The translations under genes and the position numbers were made by a program. Source: a virus. From it: a stretch of DNA of 35,307 bases. The notes beneath the pieces are model-generated. The model saw nothing but the letters and a program-made list of their open reading frames with translations. It was not told where the DNA came from and ran no database searches. Of the stretch, positions 1,056-35,307 are shown one piece after another. Within the stretch, counting starts at the first letter, position 1, and the number at the start of each line of letters is the position of its first letter. The DNA lies in IMG/VR virus record IMGVR_UViG_3300020181_000009, positions 1 through 35,307 of that record; one strand, written 5' to 3'.

Positions 1056-1085
1056 TTGCCAACCTATTAGGTCATGTATTAGACT
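1056..1085 (+). promoter_or_regulatory. Promoter box A: TTGCCA-N18-TAGACT with conserved 18-nt box
   Basis: -35 TTGCCA at 1056..1061 and -10 TAGACT at 1080..1085. The 18-nt box TAGGTCATGTATTAGACT (1068..1085) is shared with five other sites. ATG 1092 lies 6 nt after the -10, suggesting a leaderless transcript. Confidence 0.45.
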
Positions 1086-1091
1086 ATGGGT

Positions 1092-1265
1092 ATGACGAAG
1101 AACAAGAAAACCCACGAGCTGATCATCCGGGACGCGGACGGCCGGGAGGAGCTCCTCGGGGCCGGGACCGAGGCTGGGATGCTCGAGGCGCGGGCCGAGA
1201 TGCTCGACCAGGAAGACGAGCTCGGCTACCCGGCCGAGTGGCTGGTGGTGCAGCCCGCAGCGTGA
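1092..1265 (+). CDS. Small hypothetical protein, 57 aa (59 aa if ATG 1086 is used)
   Basis: Below the track cutoff; translated by hand as MTKNKKTHELIIRDADGREELLGAGTEAGMLEARAEMLDQEDELGYPAEWLVVQPAA. Third codon positions are mostly G/C. Stop TGA at 1263..1265 is followed by a GC hairpin. Confidence 0.6.
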   Translation: MTKNKKTHELIIRDADGREELLGAGTEAGMLEARAEMLDQEDELGYPAEWLVVQPAA

Positions 1266-2647: not shown

Positions 2648-3382
2648 TTACGACTCGACGACCGCCTCGGCGATGTCTCCGAGCAGCTCGTGCATGGGCA
2701 CGCGGGCGCCACCCTTGGCGGGCGAGGGCACGCCCTGCATGAGCACGTTGTGCCCGAGCGGGGTGTACTGCGTGCCGTCCGGCTTACCGTCCGGGCCGTT
2801 GAGCGGCCGGGCCCTGGTCAGGGCATTGACCGCGAGCTCCGCATTGCGCGCCGCGGTAACGGCCTTGGCAACCTCGGACGCGATCATGTTCCCGATCTTG
2901 TTGAGGTCTGCATCGGTCAGTGCCACCGGGATGTCCTCCAAACGCCATGAGGCTTTGCTCGCCTCGAGTGCGGTGTCGTAGCTGGCACTGAAGTGCCCGT
3001 GCTGGTCATGCGCGTTCGCGCCCGTGTACGTGCGCTGACGCCACCCGTTCGACGCTTCCCAGATACGCCGGTTCCAGATGATGTACCGCAGGCGCCGCTC
3101 GGTACCGTTACGGCACCGGGTTAGTAGGAATTGAACAACCCGCTCCATGTCGAGACCGGGTACGTTCAAGTCCTTGTCGACGTCGAGCGCGTGCACCTCG
3201 TTGATCTTGTCGGCGTCCCTGATCGGCACCTTGCCGGTCTCGTCGGGATTGTGGTCCGACGAGCTGCCCGCGTGCGCAGCGTCGCCGATCCAACCGTCGC
3301 TGCGCCGATCGCGGTTCGGCGCGATGTCGTCGAACTCGTTCCAGAGCTGCCGCAGGCATGAAACCAATTGGGCCGATGGCAT
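2648..3382 (-). CDS. Endolysin candidate (LAS/M15-like zinc peptidase signature)
   Basis: 244 aa. It carries WIGDAAHAGSSSDHNPDETGKV, HALDVD and HDQHGHFS, reminiscent of an H..D / HxH metallopeptidase arrangement. It sits between the tail genes and the holin-like genes. Confidence 0.55.
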   Translation of the reverse strand: MPSAQLVSCLRQLWNEFDDIAPNRDRRSDGWIGDAAHAGSSSDHNPDETGKVPIRDADKINEVHALDVDKDLNVPGLDMERVVQFLLTRCRNGTERRLRYIIWNRRIWEASNGWRQRTYTGANAHDQHGHFSASYDTALEASKASWRLEDIPVALTDADLNKIGNMIASEVAKAVTAARNAELAVNALTRARPLNGPDGKPDGTQYTPLGHNVLMQGVPSPAKGGARVPMHELLGDIAEAVVES

Positions 3383-3413
3383 AGTCTCCCCTTCCCTTCG
3401 GCTACCCGTGAGG

Positions 3414-4211
3414 CTACTGCGGTCCGGCGAAATACGTCGTGACGATGCAGACGCCGGTCGCCCCGTTGCCGCCGTTGACCGCGGTCAGCGAGGCACCCCG
3501 AGAGGCGCCCGAGCCGCCGCCGCCGTACGCCCGGCCCGTGCTGCCCGCGGTGTTCGAGCGGCCGACCTGCGAGCCGCCGAGGACCGTGCCGCCGCCATCG
3601 CCGCCGCGCTGGCCCGTGCCCGCGGTCGCCGTGATGCCGATACCGGACCCGCCAGCACCGCCCGGTACGCGGACGTCGCCGCCCGTGCCGCCCGAGCCGC
3701 CCGAGCGCACCCCGTCATTCGACGAGAAGTTTGCGGTACCCGCCGGCCGGACCCCGCCCGCGCCGCCGCCGGCCGCGGTGATGTGCGTACCGAACGAGGT
3801 CGTTCCGCCGCCCGTGCCCGACCCGGTATTACCCGTGCCGCCCGTGCCGATCGTCACGGCTACGGTCGACGCCAGATCGGTTGCGTTGAACCAACCCGCG
3901 GCGTACTCGCCGCCGCCGCCGCCGTCGCCGAACGACCACTGCGCCGCCGCGGTGGCGGCAGCGCCACCGCCCGCGCCACCGCCGCCGACGACCTGCACGT
4001 GCACGCGGTGCGCGCCGGCCGGTTTCGTCCACGTGCCGCCGGCCGTGAACACCTGCTGCGTCGGCGCGAGCGACATGTCGGTCAGCGCATCGTCGACCGC
4101 GCCGAGGGCGGTCTCGACCGCCTCGGCAAGATCCTGCCCGAGCGCCGGCCCGTCCGGCGCGTCGCCGGTCTCCTGGTAAGGCAGCGAGTACCTGCTCGTC
4201 GTGTCAGCCAT
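3414..4211 (-). CDS. Glycine-rich minor tail protein, 265 aa
   Basis: ATG 4211 follows an AGGAGAG Shine-Dalgarno sequence. Long GGxGG/GTGG runs are typical of actinophage minor tail proteins. The upstream extension shown in the track is rejected. Confidence 0.7.
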   Translation of the reverse strand: MADTTSRYSLPYQETGDAPDGPALGQDLAEAVETALGAVDDALTDMSLAPTQQVFTAGGTWTKPAGAHRVHVQVVGGGGAGGGAAATAAAQWSFGDGGGGGEYAAGWFNATDLASTVAVTIGTGGTGNTGSGTGGGTTSFGTHITAAGGGAGGVRPAGTANFSSNDGVRSGGSGGTGGDVRVPGGAGGSGIGITATAGTGQRGGDGGGTVLGGSQVGRSNTAGSTGRAYGGGGSGASRGASLTAVNGGNGATGVCIVTTYFAGPQ

Positions 4212-21190: not shown

Positions 21191-21589
21191 TCACACTGGT
21201 AGGCGGTCGATGATGCGCTGCGCGAGCAGCCGTACCGCGGGCTCGGGTGCGAGCCCGCTGTGCACCCACTGCTGCAGGGTGCGGTTCCCCTTGCTCGTGT
21301 TGCACCGCGCACACGCGGCGAGCGTGTTCTCTGGCGAGCTCGTGCCGCCCTTGCTGTGGGGCACGACATGATCCCCCGTGTTCGCCGGACCGCCGCAGTA
21401 GTCGCAGCGTCCCCCGCTCGCTGCGAGCGCCGCCCGACGCAGCATGGCCCACACGCGCGACGAGTACGTGCCGTTGACGACACTCGGCCGGCGCGGCCGG
21501 TAGCCACCCCGTTTCGGGTGCCGCGGGCAGTCGCCATCCGGAACGGGCTGCGAGCAGACCCCGCACGGCCGCAGCGGACGGTGCGTCAT
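21191..21589 (-). CDS. HNH endonuclease, 132 aa
   Basis: Contains GDHVVPHSKGG...NTLAACARCNTSKGN. ATG 21589 forms an ATGA overlap with the upstream stop. Confidence 0.85.
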   Translation of the reverse strand: MTHRPLRPCGVCSQPVPDGDCPRHPKRGGYRPRRPSVVNGTYSSRVWAMLRRAALAASGGRCDYCGGPANTGDHVVPHSKGGTSSPENTLAACARCNTSKGNRTLQQWVHSGLAPEPAVRLLAQRIIDRLPV

Positions 21590-21867
21590 CGGCGCGACTC
21601 GAGGTAGGCCTCGACGTCGGCCAAGTCCCACACGCGACCCGCCTTGATCGTGTCGAGCGGCTCGGGCAGGTCGCGCCACTGACAGACCGCGGGCGAGGAC
21701 ACCCCCGCGAGCGCGGCGATCTCGGCGATGCCGGCGAGACGCGGCCGGACGACCTGCGCGGTGCCGAGCAGGCCGGCGCGCGTGAGCAGCTCGTGAATCG
21801 CTCGAGCCTGCTCGGCGGTCGCCCCGTCGCCGAGAGCGTGCCGGATCCGGCCGATACCGACAGACAT
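21586..21867 (-). CDS. Helix-turn-helix DNA-binding protein (excisionase/MerR-like HTH_17 pattern), 93 aa
   Basis: Pattern AGIAEIAALAGVSSPAVCQWRDLPEPLDTIKAGRVWDLADVEAYL. A GGGAGGGA Shine-Dalgarno sequence and an A7 spacer precede ATG 21867. Confidence 0.65.
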   Translation of the reverse strand: MSVGIGRIRHALGDGATAEQARAIHELLTRAGLLGTAQVVRPRLAGIAEIAALAGVSSPAVCQWRDLPEPLDTIKAGRVWDLADVEAYLESRR

Positions 21868-21899
21868 TTTTTTCCGTCCCTCCCCCCGCTGACCTGCGA

Positions 21900-21928
21900 A
21901 TCTTAACAGCGCTAAGCCATCTCGGCAA
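21900..21928 (-). promoter_or_regulatory. Candidate promoter TTGCCG-N17-TAAGAT
   Basis: Minus-strand -35 at 21928..21923 and -10 at 21905..21900, upstream of the HTH gene. Confidence 0.3.
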
Positions 21929-22695: not shown

Positions 22696-23616
22696 TCAGC
22701 CCCCGAGCCGCTGATACGCGAACCGCGCCTGATCCGGCACGACCCCGTTACCGGCGAGGCGCACGACATCCTGCCGCTGCAGGCCTCGGCCCGAGATGTG
22801 ACCCGCGGGCAGCATCATCAGCCACTCGGCGAACCGCCCCGAGAGGCGACCGTGCTCGTCGAGCGGCAGCGGGGCCGGCGCGCCCATGGTCGCCTCGTGG
22901 CGCCTGATCGCGCCCTCGTAGATGCCCCACGTGCCGGGAGCGAGCGTGCCCACGGCATCGTTGAGCGTCGGCCCGGTGCCCGTCCGGGCCGCCCGGTCGG
23001 GCTCTACGCCGCGCTTCTCGTCGCCCGCCCGCGGGGTCGGCAGCAGTCGCCCGAGCCGCAACGGGTAGCCGCACGCCATCCGGCGCACGTGCACCGCCTC
23101 GGGAGCGGGCCGGTTGACCACGCGGTCGGCCAGCAGGAACCACCGGTGCCTGTGATGGGCCGCGCCGACCTCGCAGGCGCCGTAGACGCCCCACCGAACC
23201 GCGAACCCGTCCTCGCGCAGGTTGCTCAGGATCTCGGCGTGCAGCCTGCCGCCCTCGATCGTCACGAGGTTGCCGACGTTCTCGAGGAACACCCGGAACG
23301 GCTCGGCGGCCCGGATCGCCGTACGCGCGTACGGCCACAGCCACCGCTTGTCGGCCTTACCGCGCTTGCGGCCCTGCACGCTGACGGGCTGACACGGCAC
23401 GCCTGCGGTCAGGATGTCGACCCGACTGAGCAGCTCGAACAGCCCCGGATCGGTCAGGTCGCCGAGATTCGGAGCGAGCGAGTTCAGCTCGAGCACGCGA
23501 GCGGCATCGGGCTCGTTCTCGACGTGCCACAACGGCGTATGCGCCACCCCCGCGAGGGTCAGCGCCATGCCGAGCCCGTCATACCCGCTGCACAGGTGCC
23601 CGCTCGTAATCGTCAC
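22696..23616 (-). CDS. DNA (cytosine-5) methyltransferase, 306 aa
   Basis: Motif I LCSGYDGLG, motif IV GVPCQPVS, motif VI FLENV, motif VIII RHRWF, motif X LAGNGVVP. Confidence 0.85.
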   Translation of the reverse strand: MTITSGHLCSGYDGLGMALTLAGVAHTPLWHVENEPDAARVLELNSLAPNLGDLTDPGLFELLSRVDILTAGVPCQPVSVQGRKRGKADKRWLWPYARTAIRAAEPFRVFLENVGNLVTIEGGRLHAEILSNLREDGFAVRWGVYGACEVGAAHHRHRWFLLADRVVNRPAPEAVHVRRMACGYPLRLGRLLPTPRAGDEKRGVEPDRAARTGTGPTLNDAVGTLAPGTWGIYEGAIRRHEATMGAPAPLPLDEHGRLSGRFAEWLMMLPAGHISGRGLQRQDVVRLAGNGVVPDQARFAYQRLGG

Positions 23617-23975
23617 GCTCGCACCATCGCTCGGGTGCGCCGCGCCTCGACCTCGGACGCGATCTCTTCCGCGGCGAGCGCCGGGTACGGCACGCCCCCG
23701 TCCGACTCGATCAGCCCGCGCTCGACGAGCGCCGCGATCGTCTCGGCCACGAGCACGCAGTTCCGGGCGTTGAGCTCACGCAGGTCGGCCATCGCTACCG
23801 GCCACTCAGCCATCGCGAGGATGACGAGCGACTCGGTCTCGGTCATACGCTCGATCTCGGTCAGTGCCTTCTCGGCGTCGGCCGCGGTCGGCAACGGGCC
23901 GACGACGCGGATCGTGCCGCGGTTGATCTCGTGTCCGTACTGCGTTTGCTCGATCCGGAGCTCGTTCGTCGTCAT
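23613..23975 (-). CDS. Hypothetical protein, possible winged-helix, 120 aa (leaderless start)
   Basis: ATG 23975 lies 6 nt after the -10 of box B. Confidence 0.6.
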   Translation of the reverse strand: MTTNELRIEQTQYGHEINRGTIRVVGPLPTAADAEKALTEIERMTETESLVILAMAEWPVAMADLRELNARNCVLVAETIAALVERGLIESDGGVPYPALAAEEIASEVEARRTRAMVRA

Positions 23976-23981
23976 GTCCCT

Positions 23982-24011
23982 ACCCTAACACGTGACCTAT
24001 TAGGTTGTCCA
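23982..24011 (-). promoter_or_regulatory. Promoter box B: TGGACA-N18-TAGGGT
   Basis: Box TAGGTCACGTGTTAGGGT on the minus strand (23999..23982). -35 at 24011..24006, inside the helicase 3' end. The 11-bp palindrome ACCTATTAGGT lies at 23995..24005. Confidence 0.45.
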
Positions 24012-25682
24012 ATACCCGGCCGGCGAGACCTGCTCGACGCACGGCAGCGTGTCGATCGCGGTCGCGGCCCATCGTGCGTCCTGCGCCTCGACCAGCGCGC
24101 CGACGGTCGTCGGTGCCTGCTCGCCGCCCGGCGCCTCGCCCGCGTAGATCGCCGCGATGCGCTCGGACCGGGTGAGCCGCTTGCCCCGCCACGCGGCAGC
24201 GCGCTCGAGCGGACGCTCGGCACGCGCCCTGGCCGCCTTCTCGCCCCAACTCATCGCCGCGGTGATGTCGCACGGATCCTCGTGCACGAGCTCGCCGTCG
24301 GTCCAACGCACGTCGTACCGGTCGACCTCGGCGGCCGGTACGAGGATGACTGCGGCACCGCTCCCGGTCGGCAGATACCAGACGCCCCGCGGTGAGCGCT
24401 GCCACGCCGTGTGACTCGCCGAGAACAGGTCGATCAGCTCGTACCCGAGCTCGCCGTCGACACCGTGAAGTTCATCCGGAGTAGGCGCACCAACGGTTTT
24501 CGGCTCGTCGTCGTCCACATCGGACTCGTCATCGAACTGCTTGAGCTCGTCGTCGAGATCCTCGATCATCTCGGCGCCCTCGAGCTGCACGACGGAGCGC
24601 AGGCGGTGCCGCCCGGTCGCGCCGACGACATCGAGCACGAGGCAGTCGGTCTGTCCGGGGTACGGCCGCAGCCCGCGCCCGGCCATCTGCTGAAACAGCA
24701 CTTCCGAGCTCGTCGGCCGCCCGAGTACGACGAGATCCCAGATCGGCACGTCGGTGCCCTCGGTGAACAGCCCGACGTTGCACACGACGTCGTACTCGCC
24801 GAGGCGGGCGCGCTTGATGATCTCCTTACGTACCGCCTTGGGCGTGTCCGCATCGACGTGGATGCTGCGCAGCCCGTGCTCGGCGAACACCCGGGCCTGC
24901 TCTTTGCTGAGCTCGACGCTCGGCAGGAAAGCGACCCCGCGGCGGCCCTTGCCGTGCTCGAGCACGGCCCGCGCGATCGCGGCCGGCGCGAGCGCATCGC
25001 TCATCGCCTGCGCGACCGCCCGGTCGTCAAGCCCGCTGTCGCTCGTGCGCGACGTCCGGACCCGCGAGAAGTCGAGTCCCTCGACCTTGACGCGCACGCC
25101 CCGCGGGCGCAGCAGCCACCCGTCGCGGATCAGTTCATCCATGGGCACGACCTCGCTCGGCGGCCCGTCAAACGTGTCACCGAGGGCGAGCCCGTCGGCG
25201 CGGCCGAGCGTGGCGGTCACGCCAAGCAGCAGCGGCCCGGTCGGCTCGAACACGCCGAGACCGCGCAGGATCGTCTGATAGCTCGGCGCCGCGATGTGAT
25301 GCGTCTCGTCGACGATCACGAGACCCGGCCGGCGCGCCGCGACGAGCCCGAGCGCACCCGGGCGCACGACGGTCTGCACGCTGCCGACGATGACCGCCCG
25401 GTCGACCTCGCGCCGCCGCCCCTGCAGCACCCCGACCGACAACCCGGCCGAGGAGCTCAGCAGCTTCTCCTCGGCCGAGTCGATCAACTCGGTACGGTGC
25501 GCGAGCACGAGCACGGGCGCGCCAGCCGCTACGCAGTCGACCGCGGCGCGGGCGAACACGACGGTCTTACCGCCTCCCGTCGGCAGCACGAGCGGCACGC
25601 GGCGCCGGCCAGCGCCGTACGCGGCATACGTCTTGTCGATCGCCCGCTGCTGGTAAGGCCTGAGCGTGAGCGCCTCGGCCAC
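24000..25682 (-). CDS. SF2 DEAD/DEAH-box DNA helicase, about 560 aa (track ORF extends to 25757)
   Basis: Motif I PTGGGKT, motif II VIVDETHH, motif III TATLGR. GTG 25682 overlaps the upstream TAG. Confidence 0.85.
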   Translation of the reverse strand: MAEALTLRPYQQRAIDKTYAAYGAGRRRVPLVLPTGGGKTVVFARAAVDCVAAGAPVLVLAHRTELIDSAEEKLLSSSAGLSVGVLQGRRREVDRAVIVGSVQTVVRPGALGLVAARRPGLVIVDETHHIAAPSYQTILRGLGVFEPTGPLLLGVTATLGRADGLALGDTFDGPPSEVVPMDELIRDGWLLRPRGVRVKVEGLDFSRVRTSRTSDSGLDDRAVAQAMSDALAPAAIARAVLEHGKGRRGVAFLPSVELSKEQARVFAEHGLRSIHVDADTPKAVRKEIIKRARLGEYDVVCNVGLFTEGTDVPIWDLVVLGRPTSSEVLFQQMAGRGLRPYPGQTDCLVLDVVGATGRHRLRSVVQLEGAEMIEDLDDELKQFDDESDVDDDEPKTVGAPTPDELHGVDGELGYELIDLFSASHTAWQRSPRGVWYLPTGSGAAVILVPAAEVDRYDVRWTDGELVHEDPCDITAAMSWGEKAARARAERPLERAAAWRGKRLTRSERIAAIYAGEAPGGEQAPTTVGALVEAQDARWAATAIDTLPCVEQVSPAGYWTT

Positions 25683-25960: not shown

Positions 25961-26496
25961 GCCTTCCCATGCTTAGCGGCGATCTCGCGCACCTGCTCGC
26001 CGACCTCGCCAAACGTCCTCGCCAGATAGAACGCCTCGCCACACGGGCAGACGAGCTCGGCGTTACCGTCGCGATCGATCTCGAACGCGAACAGGTCGAC
26101 AAATGGCACGTCGGTCGGGAAGTAGTCGATTCCCTCACTCGCTCGCCACTGCCACCGCGCGGGCGGGGTGCGGCCGATGGTGCAGAACACGGTCTCGATG
26201 ATCGGGTGCAGCGGCCGGATCAGGATCCGGGTACCGCGGTCGCGCAGCACCGCGCGCAGATCGTGTTCTGCGCAACCTTGAGCGGCCCAGACCGTGCGGT
26301 GATCGCCACCCTCGGCCGCGGGCACGAGTCGCTCACCAACAACGCGGTACGCGCGAACGGCGCGACCCGTGCCCCGCGGCTCGCTGACGACCCGGTACTC
26401 GACACCGTACGCGGTCGTGCCCTCGTACGCGGTCGCGCCGACCATGGCCTCGGCGTTGCGCAGCCCGCGGGCGCGCCGCCAGCTGATGGCGCTCAT
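25957..26496 (-). CDS. Hypothetical protein, 179 aa
   Basis: ATG 26496 forms an ATGA overlap with the upstream stop. The track's upstream extension is Arg-rich. Confidence 0.55.
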   Translation of the reverse strand: MSAISWRRARGLRNAEAMVGATAYEGTTAYGVEYRVVSEPRGTGRAVRAYRVVGERLVPAAEGGDHRTVWAAQGCAEHDLRAVLRDRGTRILIRPLHPIIETVFCTIGRTPPARWQWRASEGIDYFPTDVPFVDLFAFEIDRDGNAELVCPCGEAFYLARTFGEVGEQVREIAAKHGKA

Positions 26497-26846
26497 CGGG
26501 TGGCCTCGGCGACCGCGTAGCCGATGTGGCGGTCGCAGTGCAGCACGGGATCGCGGCCGCCGACGCGACGCACGTGACCACTCGCGACCGCGGGGCAGTA
26601 CCGGCACTTGCCGCTGATGCCCGCCCGGTACTCGGTGATCTCCTGCGGGCTCAGCGCTCGCGCGGTCGGGCGCCGCAGGGTCCGGCGGATCGCGATGTCG
26701 AGCACGACCACGACCAACGCGACGCAGGCGAACACAGCGACCGCGAACGTGGCGGTCACCGAGCGCATGACGAGCGCGGTCAGGATGGCGATCACGGCAT
26801 AGAGCGCGAGGCGCCCGGCGCGCCGGCTGAGCAGGTTCCGGATCAT
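26493..26846 (-). CDS. Membrane protein with C-terminal CxxC...HCxxH motif, 117 aa
   Basis: ATG 26846 follows a GAGGGAG Shine-Dalgarno sequence. Two TM helices, then KCRYCPAV...HCDRH. Confidence 0.6.
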   Translation of the reverse strand: MIRNLLSRRAGRLALYAVIAILTALVMRSVTATFAVAVFACVALVVVVLDIAIRRTLRRPTARALSPQEITEYRAGISGKCRYCPAVASGHVRRVGGRDPVLHCDRHIGYAVAEATR

Positions 26847-26880
26847 GATGTCTCCCTCATCGGATCGACTTGATACGTCC

Positions 26881-26910
26881 AAGCTAATAGGTCGGCTACT
26901 AGCTTGTCAA
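26881..26910 (-). promoter_or_regulatory. Promoter box D: TTGACA-N18-TAGCTT
   Basis: Minus-strand -35 at 26910..26905 and -10 at 26886..26881. Box TAGCCGACCTATTAGCTT. A 34-nt leader with a Shine-Dalgarno sequence runs to ATG 26846. Confidence 0.5.
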
Positions 26911-26948
26911 CCACTCACTGTCAGTGAGCGTTACGTTTACAGAGCGTG

Positions 26949-27034
26949 TGATACGGATGATACGGATGATTCCCGTTCCTCGCGTAACGCGCAGGCATGC
27001 GCGTTCTTGGGAACCATCCGTATCATGTGTATCA
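26949..27034. repeat. Imperfect palindrome with TGATACGGA repeats downstream of the primase gene
   Basis: Direct copies at 26949..26957 and 26958..26966; inverted copy at 27017..27025; TGATAC half-copies at 26871 and 27029..27034. Inner hairpin AACGCGCA-GGCA-TGCGCGTT at 26986..27005. Confidence 0.7.
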
Positions 27035-29717: not shown

Positions 29718-29993
29718 CTACGCCGTGCCTGCTCGCTTGATCAGCTCGGCGCGCCCGAGCTTGATGCGCCTGTCGTACTCGGCATTCAGCACGGCCGATG
29801 TCCGGTAACTCTCGATGGCATCCTCAAGCAGCGCGCGGGCGACCGCGCCCTCACTGCGCGCCCCGTCGGCGATCTTGCTGCCGAGCAGGAAGGCTCGCGT
29901 CTCCTCGGTCATCAGTACGTTGACGTGCTCCGTCAGCAGCGCGGGCTCGGCCGCGGGGGCGACTCGCGCCTCGGTCTCGTTTGTCATGGTCAT
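29718..29993 (-). CDS. Ribbon-helix-helix (CopG/Arc-like) regulator, 91 aa (89 aa if leaderless ATG 29987)
   Basis: Pattern HVNVLMTEETRAFLLGS...EGAVARALLEDAIESY fits strand-helix-helix. The gene abuts the operator palindrome. Confidence 0.6.
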   Translation of the reverse strand: MTMTNETEARVAPAAEPALLTEHVNVLMTEETRAFLLGSKIADGARSEGAVARALLEDAIESYRTSAVLNAEYDRRIKLGRAELIKRAGTA

Positions 29994-30042
29994 AACCTAA
30001 CAGACGACCTAGGTTGCGCGCTATTAGGTCGTCTGTTAGGTT
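29994..30042. promoter_or_regulatory. Divergent operator/promoter: perfect 18-bp inverted repeat with 13-nt spacer
   Basis: AACCTAACAGACGACCTA (29994..30011) is the exact reverse complement of TAGGTCGTCTGTTAGGTT (30025..30042). Each arm ends in a TAGGTT -10 facing outward. Confidence 0.6.
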
Positions 30043-30049
30043 CATGGGC

Positions 30050-30220
30050 ATGAAGTTGTTCCGGACCCGGCGCCACCGCGGCGCACACCGTGCCCGCCGG
30101 CCGGGAGACTGCCACTGCACGGTCCGTCCCCCGGTCGACCCGTGGGCCGGTAACCCGATCCTGTTCCCCCGGTACGCCCCGGCACTGTGGGCGGCCGCCG
30201 ACCGAAAGGCGATCCTCTGA
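30050..30220 (+). CDS. Small basic protein, 56 aa (leaderless; 58 aa if ATG 30044)
   Basis: MKLFRTRRHRGAHRARRPGDCHC.... Third codon positions are very G/C-rich. ATG lies 7 nt after the -10 at 30037..30042. Confidence 0.55.
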   Translation: MKLFRTRRHRGAHRARRPGDCHCTVRPPVDPWAGNPILFPRYAPALWAAADRKAIL

Positions 30221-30726
30221 TGGCCATGCCCGCATACGAACCGCGCCGTAAGCGCAACACGATGAGCGGCGTGCTGCTCGGCGCGCTGGTGCTCTTCCTG
30301 ATCTGCATCGGCGGCACCGTGTTCGCCGCACTCTCGGATGACAGCACGCCACCGCCGGCCGTGCCGACGTTCGACCCGACGAACCACTCGACGCAGCCGC
30401 CGCGGACGCTCGCTCCGACGGTCGCACCGACGACCCCCGCGGCCGAGCAGCCCGCACCGAGCACGGCGGCCGCCAAGGCGCCCGCCCCGACGATCGCAGG
30501 CGATGACGTCGTGCAGGTCGGGCAGGACGTGCCCGCGGGCACTTACCGCGCCGTGGAAGCGGTCGAGAACGACGGCTTCCTGATGTGCTATTGGCTCAAG
30601 AGCAGCGACGCCGAGGGCACGCAGATCATCAGCAACGGCCTGCCGCAGGGCGGGCGGCCGCAGGTGACGCTCAAGAAAGGTCAATGGTTCACCTCTCAGG
30701 GTTGCCCGACGTGGCGCAAACAGTGA
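30220..30726 (+). CDS. Membrane-anchored protein with Pro/Thr/Ala linker and small Cys-bonded C-terminal domain, 168 aa
   Basis: ATG 30220 overlaps the upstream stop (TGATG). TM segment VLLGALVLFLICIGGTVFAAL. C-terminal pattern PAGTYRA...CYW...GCPTW. Confidence 0.65.
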   Translation: MAMPAYEPRRKRNTMSGVLLGALVLFLICIGGTVFAALSDDSTPPPAVPTFDPTNHSTQPPRTLAPTVAPTTPAAEQPAPSTAAAKAPAPTIAGDDVVQVGQDVPAGTYRAVEAVENDGFLMCYWLKSSDAEGTQIISNGLPQGGRPQVTLKKGQWFTSQGCPTWRKQ

Positions 30727-31746: not shown

Positions 31747-32022
31747 GTGCCCGACACGTGGGAGTCCGTGCACGTCGGCGACGTCGTACGCGGGCATGAT
31801 GGGCAGACGTACGGGGTCGCCAGCATTCAGCTCGGCGACCCCCGCGGGCCGATCGTGGCGCTCTTTCGTCACGGTGCGGTCATCGGCCCGGCGCAGCCGC
31901 CACCGGGCACGCCGATCGAGATTATCCAACGGGCCGACAGCGCAGCCGAGGCGCGGGCGTTCGGCATCCTGGCCGCCGCCGGCCTCGGTCCGGAACTACT
32001 AGGGGAGACCTACCAACCATGA
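31747..32022 (+). CDS. Hypothetical protein, 91 aa
   Basis: Track ORF. Its stop overlaps the next ATG (ATGA). Confidence 0.55.
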   Translation: MPDTWESVHVGDVVRGHDGQTYGVASIQLGDPRGPIVALFRHGAVIGPAQPPPGTPIEIIQRADSAAEARAFGILAAAGLGPELLGETYQP

Positions 32023-33368
32023 CCGATCTGCAGGCGCCGGCCATCGTCGGCCGCATCGGGTCGATGCGCGTGCGCAACGGCCGTTACTTCGATGGTGACG
32101 AGTCCTACCAGCGCACGAGCAACGCGCTCAAGAACATCGAGACGGACACCTATCAGCTCGACGAGTGGAAGGCGAACACGCTCGCGATCGGGCTGTCGTC
32201 GCGGTCCGACCTCGTGCTCGGGGTGGCCGCCGCCGCGCAGTACGACCCGGCGACGGGCAAGCTGACCAGCGAGGCGAAAAGCACGTTGCGCGGACTGCGC
32301 GAGCAGGCGATGCAGGCGGGCAAGAGTAAGGCGGGCAGCAACGCCGGCACCGCCGTGCATACCGCGACCGAGCGGCTCGACATGGGCGAGACCGTCGAGC
32401 AGGTCGGCCTGCCGTACCCGTACGACGTCGACCTCAAAGCGTACGAGACGCTCAAACGGGCGATGCGGCTCAGCTTCCGGCCCGAGCACATCGAACGCAC
32501 CGTGCGGCTCAAGCAGTTCGGCATCGCCGGCACGTTCGACCGCCTCGGCGAGAGCGGGCTGCTCGTCGAGCTCGGCATCCTGGCGCCCGGCGAGCTGCTC
32601 GTCGTGGACGTGAAGACGGAGACCGACCCGCTGCTGAACCTGATTCACATCGCACCGCAGCTCGCCTCGTACGCGCACGGCGACGACATGTTCGTACCCG
32701 AGCCGCAGCCCGCCACCGACGCGGACCCGAGCGGCCCGTTCCGCGGGCGGTACGAGCCGCTGCCGAACGTGAGTAAGGTCGTCGGGCTCGTCGTGCACGT
32801 GCGCGCCGGCCGGGCCGTGCCGTACCTGATCGACCTCACCTCGGGTTGGGCCGGGACGGTCGCGGCGTACGAGCAGCGCGAGCGGATCAAGGCCAGCAAG
32901 ATCAAGCTCGGCGATGAGGGCTGTTGGGCCGTCGCGCTGCCGATCGACCTGCCGCCCGTGACCGAGTTTGTTGCCGACTCGATCGCCCGCGGGCCGCTCG
33001 GTTTCTCGGCGCCCGCCGGCATGACGCACGAGCAGTACGTCGCGCAGCCCGCCCTGCCCGCCGCGCCCGTCATTGAGCAGGCCGTGCGCCGGCCGGATGG
33101 CATGGTCGATTGGGTGCCCGCGGGCATACCGCCCGGCGAGGCGCCGCTCGAGGCGATGCTATGGGAAGCGATCATGTCCGCCGACTCGCTCGAAGAGCTC
33201 GCGCGGTTGTACGAGAACGCGACCGCGACCGGGATCGAATGGCTCGGGCCGATCGCCGAGGCGGGCATCGCCCGCGCAAAGATCGTGCAGTGCGTGCAGC
33301 GCGACCTGCACGTTCCGGCCAGCGGTGGCGCGTGCGCGTGTGGATGGCGCGCGGAGCTTGTGCCCTAA
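32019..33368 (+). CDS. PD-(D/E)XK (RecB/Cas4/YqaJ-like) exonuclease, 449 aa
   Basis: Motifs GTAVHTATE, GTFDRLG...LLVVDVKTE and QLASYA match the D / (D/E)xK / QxxxY nuclease signature. Confidence 0.65.
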   Translation: MTDLQAPAIVGRIGSMRVRNGRYFDGDESYQRTSNALKNIETDTYQLDEWKANTLAIGLSSRSDLVLGVAAAAQYDPATGKLTSEAKSTLRGLREQAMQAGKSKAGSNAGTAVHTATERLDMGETVEQVGLPYPYDVDLKAYETLKRAMRLSFRPEHIERTVRLKQFGIAGTFDRLGESGLLVELGILAPGELLVVDVKTETDPLLNLIHIAPQLASYAHGDDMFVPEPQPATDADPSGPFRGRYEPLPNVSKVVGLVVHVRAGRAVPYLIDLTSGWAGTVAAYEQRERIKASKIKLGDEGCWAVALPIDLPPVTEFVADSIARGPLGFSAPAGMTHEQYVAQPALPAAPVIEQAVRRPDGMVDWVPAGIPPGEAPLEAMLWEAIMSADSLEELARLYENATATGIEWLGPIAEAGIARAKIVQCVQRDLHVPASGGACACGWRAELVP

Positions 33369-33386
33369 TAGATGACGTGTTAGGTT
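33358..33386 (+). promoter_or_regulatory. Promoter box E: TTGTGC-N17-TAGGTT (no ATG follows)
   Basis: Box TAGATGACGTGTTAGGTT at 33369..33386 is near-identical to box B. It would start a ~197-nt untranslated RNA upstream of ATG 33590. Confidence 0.4.
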
Positions 33387-33438
33387 TGTTCCACGCCCCC
33401 CGGCTCATAGGGGTCGGCCCTAAGGGCCGGGGGAGCAC

Positions 33439-33541
33439 GCAGGGGCAGCATGCTGGAGTATGCGCCGCAGCCTTGACGGTATTAGTCCTCGAGCTAGCCG
33501 CCGGCACGCGGAGATCGCGGGTCCGAATCCCGCTCCCTGCT
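33439..33541 (+). other. tRNA-like fragment (T-arm plus acceptor 3' strand); not a canonical tRNA
   Basis: GCGGG-TCCGAAT-CCCGC (33517..33533) resembles a T-arm but has C at the usual T55 position. TCCCTGC (33534..33540) can pair with GCAGGGG (33439..33445). The middle segment is about 30 nt too long and no anticodon arm can be drawn. Confidence 0.3.
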
Positions 33542-34709: not shown

Positions 34710-35307
34710 CCACGCTCAACGTGCTGGTCACCGGGCGGCCCGCTCCCGAGGGGTCGCACGACGTCGGCTCGAACGGGTACGTCATGCACTCGAGCAAGTA
34801 CCTCGCCGCGTGGCGGCACGCGGTCAACCGCGGCACGCGCGAAGCGTACGTCGCGGCCGGACTGTCGGGCGCCGACATGCCGCTCGTGCCGTACCCGCGG
34901 CCGGTATGGGTCACCGTGTTGCATCTGCTGCTCGACGAGCAGTGCCGCGCCGAGGGAACCGACGACCCGACCGGAAAGCCGGACGGAGACAAGCTGCTGC
35001 GCGCCACGATCGACGGACTCGGCGAGGCGCGGGCGTTCGGCGATGACTCGCAGGTCATCGGGCACCGATCGTTCAAGGCGCGGGGCCGCCGGCCCGGCGC
35101 AGTCATTCAGATCACGGACGAACGGCCCTGGTGGGCCGAGATGAACAGGGAGAGATCGACTGTGGAGACGTTCAACCCGAACGGCGAGTACCGCCTCGTG
35201 CTCGAGAAGGTCGGCCACGACAGCGAGGGCGACCGGACGTGGAACACGATGTTCGAGGTCACCGACACGGCCGACGCGATCGCGAGTACGTGGCTGCCCT
35301 CGCTCGA
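34706..35307 (+). CDS. rusA: RusA-like Holliday junction resolvase, 5' part (runs off the window and continues at 1..398; about 290 aa in total)
   Basis: Hand translation VTTLNVLVTGRPAPEGSHDV...PDGDKLLRATIDGLGEARAFGDDSQVI matches the RusA pattern (G.P..KG / D.D..K...D.L). No stop before the window end. Confidence 0.75.
   Translation, partial: MTTLNVLVTGRPAPEGSHDVGSNGYVMHSSKYLAAWRHAVNRGTREAYVAAGLSGADMPLVPYPRPVWVTVLHLLLDEQCRAEGTDDPTGKPDGDKLLRATIDGLGEARAFGDDSQVIGHRSFKARGRRPGAVIQITDERPWWAEMNRERSTVETFNPNGEYRLVLEKVGHDSEGDRTWNTMFEVTDTADAIASTWLPSL
35181..35307. repeat. Terminal overlap copy 2 (identical to 1..127)
   Basis: Same 127 bases as the window start. Confidence 0.9.

Follow-up and report, generated by a model that had tools for sequence, protein, structure and literature searches.

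In the immI region of phage P22, the ribbon-helix-helix (RHH) repressors Arc and Mnt act at the overlapping divergent promoters Pant and Pmnt, where they repress transcription and autoregulate. Arc, a small protein made from one of these two back-to-back promoters, binds as a dimer of dimers to a partly symmetric operator of ~21 bp that lies between and over the -35 and -10 elements and has TAG-containing half-sites about one helical turn (11 bp) apart. In mycobacteriophage BPs, four promoters are under the control of gp33, a tetrameric protein with five binding regions (PMC4557955). In Mycobacterium smegmatis, SigA prefers a -10 element of the form TANNNT at -6 to -13 relative to the start, and ~24% of the transcripts are leaderless (PMC6448022). 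Here, we describe a short box that occurs six times in a phage genome, IMG/VR virus record IMGVR_UViG_3300020181_000009 (positions 1 to 35,307; this whole stretch of 35,307 nt is referred to below as the window). The box had been picked out from the letters alone (the sequence-only reading) as a phage-specific family of leaderless promoters. Sequence and comparative evidence support the promoter-family interpretation, and the box is likely to be, in addition, the operator for a phage regulator, most likely the small protein gpC', overlapping housekeeping promoters that are partly leaderless.

The six copies lie exactly where the sequence-only reading had placed them. Its pattern, TAG-N9-TTAG-NN-T, has no match in the window; the gap had been miscounted, the cited 18-mers having a gap of 8 nt, and TAG-N8-TTAG-NN-T matches precisely the six sites, at 1068-1085, 30025-30042, and 33369-33386 on the plus strand and at 23982-23999, 26881-26898, and 29994-30011 on the minus strand. 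Dinucleotide-preserving shuffles gave an expected count of 0.01, and none of 100 shuffles reached six. The TAGnnT hexamers end at 1085, 23982, 26881, 29994, 30042, and 33386. A position weight matrix (PWM) built from the window's own boxes found no further copy in the 35.3 kb and no copy within a gene body. Apart from the boxes themselves, only their opposite strands scored highly, a first hint of their partly palindromic nature. All six are at gene boundaries and are directed at the downstream gene or noncoding RNA. No operator-only copies were found in the window, and an isolated half-site at 31995-32003 is at chance level. The boxes, with their predicted promoter elements and the proteins encoded behind them, are as follows.

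Positions 1056 to 1094, plus strand: box A, with -35 TTGCCA at 1056-1061, dyad ACCTATTAGGTCATGTATTAG at 1062-1082, -10 TAGACT at 1080-1085, and ATG at 1092.
Positions 1092 to 1265, plus strand: gpA, behind box A, a 57-amino-acid acidic accessory protein.
Positions 23975 to 24012, minus strand: box B, with -35 T(T)GGACA at 24012-24006 (hexamer TGGACA at 24011-24006), dyad at 24005-23984, TGn, -10 TAGGGT at 23987-23982, and ATG at 23975.
Positions 23613 to 23975, minus strand: gpB, behind box B, a 120-amino-acid protein.
Positions 26844 to 26910, minus strand: box D, with -35 TTGACA at 26910-26905, dyad AAGCTAGTAG-CCGAC-CTATTAGCTT, -10 TAGCTT at 26886-26881, and ATG at 26846.
Positions 26493 to 26846, minus strand: gpD, behind box D, a 117-amino-acid membrane-like protein.
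Positions 29987 to 30017, minus strand: box C', with the extended -10 TGTTAGGTT (-10 at 29999-29994), no -35, a weak left arm, and ATG at 29987.
Positions 29718 to 29987, minus strand: gpC' (P0001), an RHH-like protein of 89 amino acids encoded at the head of the leftward operon, the candidate for the regulator that binds the boxes.
Positions 30014 to 30052, plus strand: box C, with -35 TTGCGC at 30014-30019, -10 TAGGTT at 30037-30042, and ATG at 30050.
Positions 33358 to 33386, plus strand: box E, with -35 TTGTGC at 33358-33363 and -10 TGTTAGGTT ending at 33386.

All six boxes contain a TANNNT -10 hexamer (TAGACT, TAGGGT, TAGCTT, and, three times, TAGGTT), and the TTG-type -35 hexamers reported 17 to 18 nt upstream can be read in five of the six, C' being without one. 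Each box is predicted to be a promoter of the housekeeping-sigma type (TTGaCa, a spacer of 17 to 18 nt, often TGn, and TAGnnT), and C' and C would be the promoters of the leftward early operon and of the rightward arm, respectively. An ATG follows the -10 at the distance that had been read as leaderless spacing in four boxes, after 6 nt in A, B, and C' (1092, 23975, and 29987) and after 7 nt in C (30050), which leaves no room for a Shine-Dalgarno sequence. D and E differ; box D has a 34-nt leader with the Shine-Dalgarno sequence GAGGGAGAC before its ATG at 26846. The TAA stop codons of the helicase gene (24002-24000, box B) and the exonuclease gene (33366-33368, box E) form the "TAA" of the left half-site CCTAATAGG, so that these boxes overlap the upstream gene ends, with their -35 elements within coding sequence and with very tight gene boundaries.

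The 11-bp palindromes described for box A (ACCTATTAGGT) and box B (ACCTAATAGGT) are present. The box had been described as an 18-mer with two TAGGT-like half-sites; the functional unit, rather than an 18-mer of two direct TAGGT repeats, appears to be ~30 bp long and to comprise the -35 element and a dyad of 21 to 24 bp, the right arm of which is the -10. The dyad (~21 bp, CCTAnTAGGT-S-ACCTrTTAGG) is made of two 9-bp half-sites with centers 12 bp apart, and it fills the spacer, its right arm doubling as an extended -10. The consensus arms are complementary at 9 of 10 positions, and the lone break is the G of TGn, suggesting that promoter function overrides symmetry at exactly one base. Mean arm symmetry among the boxes of the window and its relatives (see below) is 6.2 of 10 positions, versus 2.9 by chance, and some copies are perfect palindromes, e.g., CTAATAGGT-G-ACCTATTAG in relative L146. 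At C'/C, where two boxes stand back to back at the divergence point of the two genome arms, four half-sites are centered at 30000, 30012, 30024, and 30036, in strict 12-bp phase. Bidirectional promoters were ruled out as the origin of the dyad, since no -35 is present on the reverse strands and the operons in which boxes B and D are embedded are co-directional. The idea that each 9-bp half-site is itself a palindrome, and hence that one dimer binds per half-site, was weakened by half-sites of the CTAGCAGG type in distant relatives, which lack internal symmetry.

Eight related metagenomic phage genomes were fetched, as stretches of 12 to 20 kb with gpC' proteins 62% to 82% identical to that of the window, giving nine genomes together with the window (the family). 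Each relative carries four to eight boxes in the fetched stretch, some at sites orthologous to those of the window (C', C, D, B, E, and A) and others at further gene starts; box B, for example, has orthologous counterparts in L146, L147, L148, L149, L150, and L152, and sites orthologous to box D are likewise present. The family consensus, from 50 unique boxes in the nine genomes, is tTGaCa followed by aCCTAnTAGGTsACCTGTTAGgTT. Among these 50 boxes, the spacer TAGGT has an information content of 1.4 to 1.9 bits per position, equal to that of the -10, in which the T, the A, and the final T have 2.0, 2.0, and 1.7 bits; the TG one base upstream of the -10 has 1.5 to 1.9 bits, and the four bases past the -10 have 0.02 to 0.06 bits. 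An independent retest, in which sites were selected on TGnTAnnnT alone, found TAGGT (at least four of five bases) at the exact spacer position in 42 of 53 occurrences in the nine genomes, so the conservation is not an artifact of the PWM. The suggestion that spacer conservation goes beyond what sigma recognition needs therefore holds: the spacer is a dyad-symmetric site with a TAGGT as conserved as the -10. A scan of IMG/VR with the exact pattern TAGGTC-N3-TGTTAGG-N-T was set aside, as it returned at least 119 contigs with one match each, mostly of low G+C content, i.e., chance matches.

The genes behind three of the boxes are accessory, gpA, gpB, and gpD being missing or unrecognizable in most relatives. 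L146, the closest relative, was the only one with gpA; it carries a tandem pair of A-type cassettes (3179-3705), each with its own box and with a shared atgggtATGacgaag start. Box and small cargo gene thus seem to move together, as one promoter-gene cassette. This mobile appearance of A, B, D, and the duplicated A cassette of L146, the complete promoter elements of all boxes, and the putative status of the binding protein would suit a plain family of strong promoters that has no regulator and whose spacer is kept by cassette duplication or by a preference of the host RNA polymerase (RNAP). However, TAGGT is held at 1.4 to 1.9 bits across nine genomes whose proteins are 60% to 90% identical, with the adjacent bases randomized, and sigma recognition has no need of the dyad seen in the consensus. 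In addition, a distant clade has altered both arms symmetrically and kept TAGnnT, and C' and a box-less promoter show that promoter and spacer motif are separable (both described below). We consider such a regulator-free promoter family very unlikely.

The separability is seen from two sides. In each of the nine genomes, box C' retains CTGTTAGGTT and its distance to the ATG, but its left arm is poorly conserved and a -35 is absent. Conversely, a promoter-like site without the spacer motif occurs elsewhere in the window.

Positions 21865 to 21928, minus strand: box-less promoter-like site, with TTGCCG at 21928-21923, a 17-nt spacer, TGt-TAAGAT at 21908-21900, the Shine-Dalgarno sequence GGGAGGGA, and ATG at 21867.

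Six of the nine genomes (the window, L146, L147, L149, L150, and L152) share this candidate middle/late promoter at the same location, ahead of a gene for a weakly Cro-like protein of 93 amino acids (gp93; 21586-21867 in the window), the HNH gene, and the packaging genes. With a box that lacks the left arm and a promoter that lacks the spacer motif, the dyad appears to be an add-on that marks the promoters of the non-structural genes, as expected of an operator, and this speaks against a polymerase whose recognition sequence has been altered and lengthened. Of the two explanations that the sequence-only reading offered for the spacer, the overlapping operator is accordingly favored by the comparative evidence; the modified polymerase is unsupported, since the phage has box-less promoters beside the boxed ones and the reading frames scanned revealed no sigma- or RNAP-like gene. 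The boxes also do not fall into the promoter class of T7-like single-subunit RNAPs or of phage sigma factors, no such domain having been found with Pfam or PHROGs in any reading frame scanned and the boxes having canonical -35/-10 geometry.

A related explanation is that the dyad serves positive control or a redirected polymerase, through a phage activator, a MerR-like protein binding the spacer, or a phage sigma factor or appropriator. The missing -35 of C', the weak -35 hexamers TTGTGC and TTGCGC, and an 18-nt spacer that is one base above the optimum, as at MerR-type promoters, would suit it. On the other hand, no sigma-, RNAP-, or MerR-like domain was identified among the open reading frames (ORFs) scanned with Pfam and PHROGs (nor were integrase- or partition-like domains), and C and C', the first promoters to fire after infection, must use unmodified host polymerase. 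The extended -10 TGn accounts for activity without a -35, and a site over the -10 is a typical repressor location. We therefore regard positive control as highly improbable.

The palindromes might also act as nucleic acid hairpins, that is, as terminators or as RNA processing, replication, or packaging signals. Stable folds are predicted for box D (-13.9 kcal/mol; z, -4.2) and for the C'/C inverted repeat (-31 kcal/mol; z, -7.9), and read-through from upstream genes would transcribe boxes B, D, and E. However, the predicted folds of A, B, and E are weak (-6 to -8 kcal/mol; z, -1.2 to -1.7), which rules out a general hairpin function for most boxes; no T-run follows the palindromes; base identity (TAGGT, TTAGG) is conserved, with no significant covariation of pairs; and all copies have -35/-10 elements in register with the downstream gene. 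Of all the explanations weighed, a hairpin function is the one to which we give hardly any credence.

The start codon spacing is a property of the family as well. An ATG or GTG lies 6 to 8 nt past the -10 in 26 of 52 family boxes when an ORF of at least 15 amino acids is required, versus 3.6 expected at random positions, and in 22 when the ORF has at least 40 amino acids, versus 2.7 expected. The gpC' ATG is 6 to 7 nt past the -10 in all nine family genomes and in six distant relatives, and the bases in between differ (atgacc, gtgacc, ggtccac, and cggccgc). Independent gene calls start gpC', gpB, and the Rv1352-like genes on box-spaced ATGs; for gpA, the gene finder picks ATG 1086, and the leaderless ATG 1092 is two codons downstream, in frame. 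In other genomes, orthologous boxes of the B, D, and A types have leaders of 30 to 40 nt with GAGGGAGAC, suggesting that leaderless output is frequent and non-obligatory. This evidence is internal to the phages and is thus independent of the host assignment.

The gene start behind box C is less clear, and the ORF that begins at its ATG is not confidently a real gene.

Positions 30050 to 30220, plus strand: box C ORF, 56 amino acids, Arg-rich, with leaderless spacing, uncalled by gene finders and with weak codon bias.

This ORF ends in TGATG, which overlaps the ATG at 30220 of the Rv1352-like gene. The N-terminal motif x-L-[FI]-R-R-[YF]-x-[YH]-R-G recurs in ORFs of 16 to 56 amino acids in four relatives (L146, L149, L150, and L152, near 9940), and in three relatives the ATG equivalent to that of box C starts the Rv1352-like gene itself. 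The mini-ORF may be an upstream regulatory peptide or a frameshift remnant.

The most likely regulator of the boxes is gpC', judging from its position, distribution, and predicted fold. Its gene was found in every relative examined (the eight genomes, 62% to 82% identity), unlike those of gpA, gpB, and gpD, and gpC' has 49 homologues with 61% to 100% identity, many of which are on contigs of 33 to 38 kb. Residues 19 to 53 are nearly invariant in the family and can be read in the manner of an RHH motif (VNVLMT, EETRAFLLGSKIADGA, and RSEGAVARALLEDAIESY). An AlphaFold2 (AF2) model of the monomer, made with a more diverse alignment (predicted local distance difference test score, 92), is extended up to residue 27 and has helices at residues 28 to 41, 46 to 63, and 68 to 88, the last of which is extra. 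Among the Foldseek matches listed for this model, ~15 of 22 are RHH proteins (NikR, MazE-mt1, PrpA, AtaR, Reg576, and 1y9b), and NikR superimposes with a root mean square deviation of 1.0 to 2.8 Å over 42 to 49 residues. We therefore describe gpC' as RHH-like, a tentative assignment; it belongs to an uncharacterized family.

A library-wide profile search identified distant gpC' homologues (~30% to 45% identity) in loci that keep the synteny, with a divergent gene a few tens of nucleotides away and the primase-polymerase gene next. The 40-kb phage L153 has seven boxes of the form ACCTAGCAGGT-ACCTGCTAG-nnT, in which the -10 TAGnnT is retained, with an ATG 5 to 7 nt past the -10 in five of the seven, and no copy of the window-type half-site was found in L153. 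L155 and L157 to L160 have CTGCTAG-type half-sites in 12-bp phase, and the regulator ATG is 6 to 7 nt past the -10. In this clade, the half-site is thus CTAGCAGG/CCTGCTAG, changed symmetrically in both arms, and TAGnnT is unchanged. The strand motif of gpC' differs too, being QxH[VT]LVD in all six loci with the changed half-site, versus HVNVLMT in the window family; in L156, where the strand reads QLSVLVT, the half-sites are of the window type (CCTAACAGG/CCTGTTAG). The kind of operator and the gpC' subfamily thus change together while the promoter elements are constant, in what is essentially one clade-level contrast. As a separate observation on the cargo of these phages, a Neprosin-family (PF03080) gene, an unusual phage cargo, is present in several relatives and not in the window (L148, 14306-15628; L150, 3571-4908; L153, 12864-13793), and that of L153 has its own box promoter.

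Several results weigh against the reading of the box as a gpC' operator over housekeeping promoters. The distant clade offers a single contrast, so that any co-inherited protein would show the same pattern, and the L156 homologue (P0070) is only ~33% identical to the gpC' of the window and yet is found with the window-type half-site. The assignment of gpC' to RHH proteins could not be made firm, as all searches fell short of significance: no Pfam match at E values of up to 0.5 to 1 was obtained with 29 and 30 family members, no PDB sequence match was found even from a deep profile, Foldseek gave no match with an E value below 1, and hhalign of gpC' against Arc, CopG, Mnt, and ParD, four classical RHH proteins, gave a probability of 0.6%. 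A half-site spacing of 12 bp exceeds one helical turn. Covariation between symmetric positions is not significant family-wide, so that the symmetry is a property of the consensus, and a compensatory change in both arms of box D was dropped as evidence for the same reason. A scan for promoters and terminators based on the Escherichia coli consensus called none of the boxes; the scan is uninformative because TAGGTT matches TATAAT at three of six positions and the rule needs four of six. The exact gpC' sequence is labeled "hypothetical protein [Brevundimonas sp.]" at NCBI, a point taken up with the host below. Finally, there is an alternative binder in the conserved gp93.

The gene for gp93 lies behind the only recognized box-less promoter, and the protein has subthreshold matches to P22_Cro (E value, 0.017) and HTH_23 (E value, 0.08) and is conserved at 45% to 98% identity. 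If the operator is real and the binder is gp93, a simple temporal switch would result, gp93 shutting off the box promoters later in infection; a host factor could also be the binder. The 21-bp dyad with its 12-bp half-site spacing also suits a helix-turn-helix (HTH) dimer, and gpC' has no significant match to any DNA-binding family. Against such a binder, the gp93 matches fall below the curated cutoffs, whereas in all relatives, close or remote, gpC' is encoded in the divergent control region, the classical place for an autoregulator, its strand motif tracks the operator type, and its weak structural matches are mostly RHH repressors and antitoxins. A binder other than gpC' is, in our view, unlikely, and gpC' is kept as the candidate in what follows.

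In the proposed mechanism, the host housekeeping sigma factor would use each box, to which the site of a phage-encoded regulator is fused. Since the right half-site is the extended -10, the bound regulator would compete with RNAP for the same bases, and it is predicted to switch off all six promoters together. Each half-site would be occupied by a gpC' dimer, and gpC' would exert weak control over its own gene through the half-strength site C'. At A, B, and C', and probably also at C, the first transcribed base would be the A of the ATG, yielding leaderless mRNAs; D would yield a leadered mRNA with a Shine-Dalgarno sequence, and E a structured noncoding RNA. The regulon would consist of the non-structural part of the genome, namely, the leftward operon (regulator, primase-polymerase, helicase, and methylase), the rightward recombination genes with RusA, the tRNA-like RNA, and three small accessory genes with their own boxes. 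The packaging and structural genes would be outside the regulon, behind the conserved box-less promoter.

A wider proposal, which we put forward tentatively and hold to be possible though rather doubtful, is that gpC' founds an unclassified RHH-like family of global early regulators in widespread uncultivated phages of 35 to 42 kb and high G+C content. The half-site would be the extended -10, with the regulator and sigma reading the same TAGGT; specificity would have switched from CTAATAGG to CTAGCAGG with a change of the strand residue from N to H; and the result would be regulons like immunity groups, including tRNA promoters and accessory cassettes, without a recognizable integrase.

Box E had been predicted to lead into noncoding RNA, and the evidence supports this: no ORF starts downstream, a hairpin follows, and relatives have tRNA genes at this place. 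Two elements were identified behind the box.

Positions 33397 to 33433, plus strand: GC-rich hairpin at the predicted 5' end of the box E transcript.
Positions 33439 to 33540, plus strand: degenerate tRNA-like element, with acceptor stem, D arm, and T arm and a 34-nt insertion in the anticodon arm.

RNAalifold with seven genomes supports the hairpin with 15 pairs, 5 of which show compensatory changes; it could be a processing signal of a tRNA precursor or a stabilizing 5' stem. In the window, ARAGORN found no tRNA gene, the Rfam tRNA-Sec model gave the element 21.4 bits (E value, 0.053), below its gathering threshold of 47, and Rfam at the gathering threshold gave no matches across the window. 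True tRNAs are found at the box E position in L146 (Lys and Ile), L150 (Ala), L151 (Ser), and L152 (Arg), and an additional box in L152 precedes a tRNA-Ala. The element in the window may be a decaying tRNA or an odd functional RNA.

The phage, which is known from metagenome assemblies alone, has a G+C content of 70% over the window and a siphovirus-type gene set. Positions 1 to 127 of the window are identical to 35181 to 35307 over all 127 nt, indicating a circular or terminally redundant assembly of ~35.18 kb (~35.2 kb), and the RusA-like gene spans the window end, from 34682 through 398. The same phage occurs nearly unchanged in at least six metagenome assemblies, with identical boxes, the assemblies of other samples being 35,180 to 35,297 nt long. 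A megablast search with 24 kb of the window found no close relative among deposited phages. The genes are arranged as two arms.

Minus strand: gpC' (89 amino acids, 29987-29718), primase-polymerase/D5 helicase, DEAD-box helicase, C5 methylase, HNH endonuclease, large terminase, portal, capsid, tape measure, and tail fiber.
Plus strand, from ~30050: Rv1352-like protein (30220-30726), exonuclease, and RusA.

Boxes D and B lie inside the leftward operon, each before a small gene, box E directly follows the exonuclease gene, and box A precedes a lone plus-strand gene amid lysis and tail genes. The 130-nt gap after the primase gene contains, on the minus strand, two tandem copies of ATCATCCGT (~26951-26968) and, immediately before the -35 of box D, a small perfect hairpin, CTCACTGACAGTGAG (26914-26928). 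Possibilities for these hairpin and repeat elements (26911-26970) include a terminator of the upstream operon and a replication-related element. Relatives retrieved through the primase (in IMG/VR and in Nocardia, Mycobacterium, and Acidobacteria metagenome-assembled genomes [MAGs] of GTDB) were set aside; they show only 39% to 45% identity and have neither the box nor a gpC' homologue, and they are thus uninformative on host or lifestyle. A locus search based on the exonuclease gave no matches.

The sequence-only reading noted that leaderless mRNAs are common in Actinobacteria; an actinobacterial host is plausible and not established. The remote relatives of the large terminase (TerL; up to 25% identity, 558 records) are almost all from actinobacteriophages, so the Brevundimonas label of gpC', which speaks against such a host and comes from a 35,307-nt contig that is evidently the window placed in a MAG, looks like an artifact of MAG binning. 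In addition, an r1t-type holin was found in one family member and an Rv1352-family gene in several, and the promoter logic fits. A high-GC Gram-positive host is likely, to judge from these features.

What is new in this system is modest: an unclassified candidate regulator family, a half-site that would be the extended -10, the use of the same box for tRNA promoters and accessory cassettes, and a design that appears to be common to a whole group of uncultivated phages. If confirmed, the box would provide a regulatory map of an uncultivated phage family, giving the co-regulated early set, the transcription starts, and the leaderless genes, and it would nominate an unannotated family of ~90-amino-acid proteins as regulators, with two natural specificity variants. 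A repressor half-site that is also the -10 hexamer could serve as a tight, portable switch for high-GC Gram-positive hosts. The general picture of phage gene control would be unchanged, since dispersed operators at early promoters and leaderless transcripts are already well documented in actinobacteriophages.

The closest known systems each share only a part of this design. Arc acts on a single operator in a phage of a Gram-negative host with leadered mRNAs, with half-sites 11 bp apart, whereas the window has a putative six-site regulon with a spacing of 12 bp; there is no detectable sequence relationship between Arc and gpC' (hhalign probability, 0.6%). The leaderless SigA promoters of M. smegmatis and Mycobacterium tuberculosis resemble the boxes in having TANNNT ~6 to 7 nt before +1 and a frequent TGn, a 5'-end ATG or GTG is sufficient for translation there, and about a quarter of the transcripts are of this kind (PMC6448022). 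However, those are unrelated cellular promoters without a shared spacer motif, whereas here, in a host that is not established, one spacer dyad would tie together a phage regulon. The stoperators of cluster A mycobacteriophages (L5, Bxb1, and TipsytheTRex) are likewise many dispersed copies of a short repressor site, one of them at the early promoter, in a high-GC host, but they are asymmetric 13-bp sites that are bound by a monomer, are mostly not at promoters, and block elongation in one orientation (PMC9283540). The boxes do not belong to the stoperator class, being dyad symmetric, with a full predicted promoter at every copy and no operator-only copies. The BPs gp33 system shares with the window a small phage DNA-binding protein at a divergent control region, dispersed operators of two half-sites, and, in BPs, a high-GC actinobacterial host (PMC4557955). 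It differs in that BPs is temperate, with immunity that depends on integration, and gp33 is of the HTH type, whereas no integrase was found in the ORFs of the window and the candidate here is RHH-like and unclassified. The BPs operator is a 12-bp palindrome, CGACATATGTCG, with a variable second half (PMC4557955), whereas in the boxes described here the half-site doubles as the -10.

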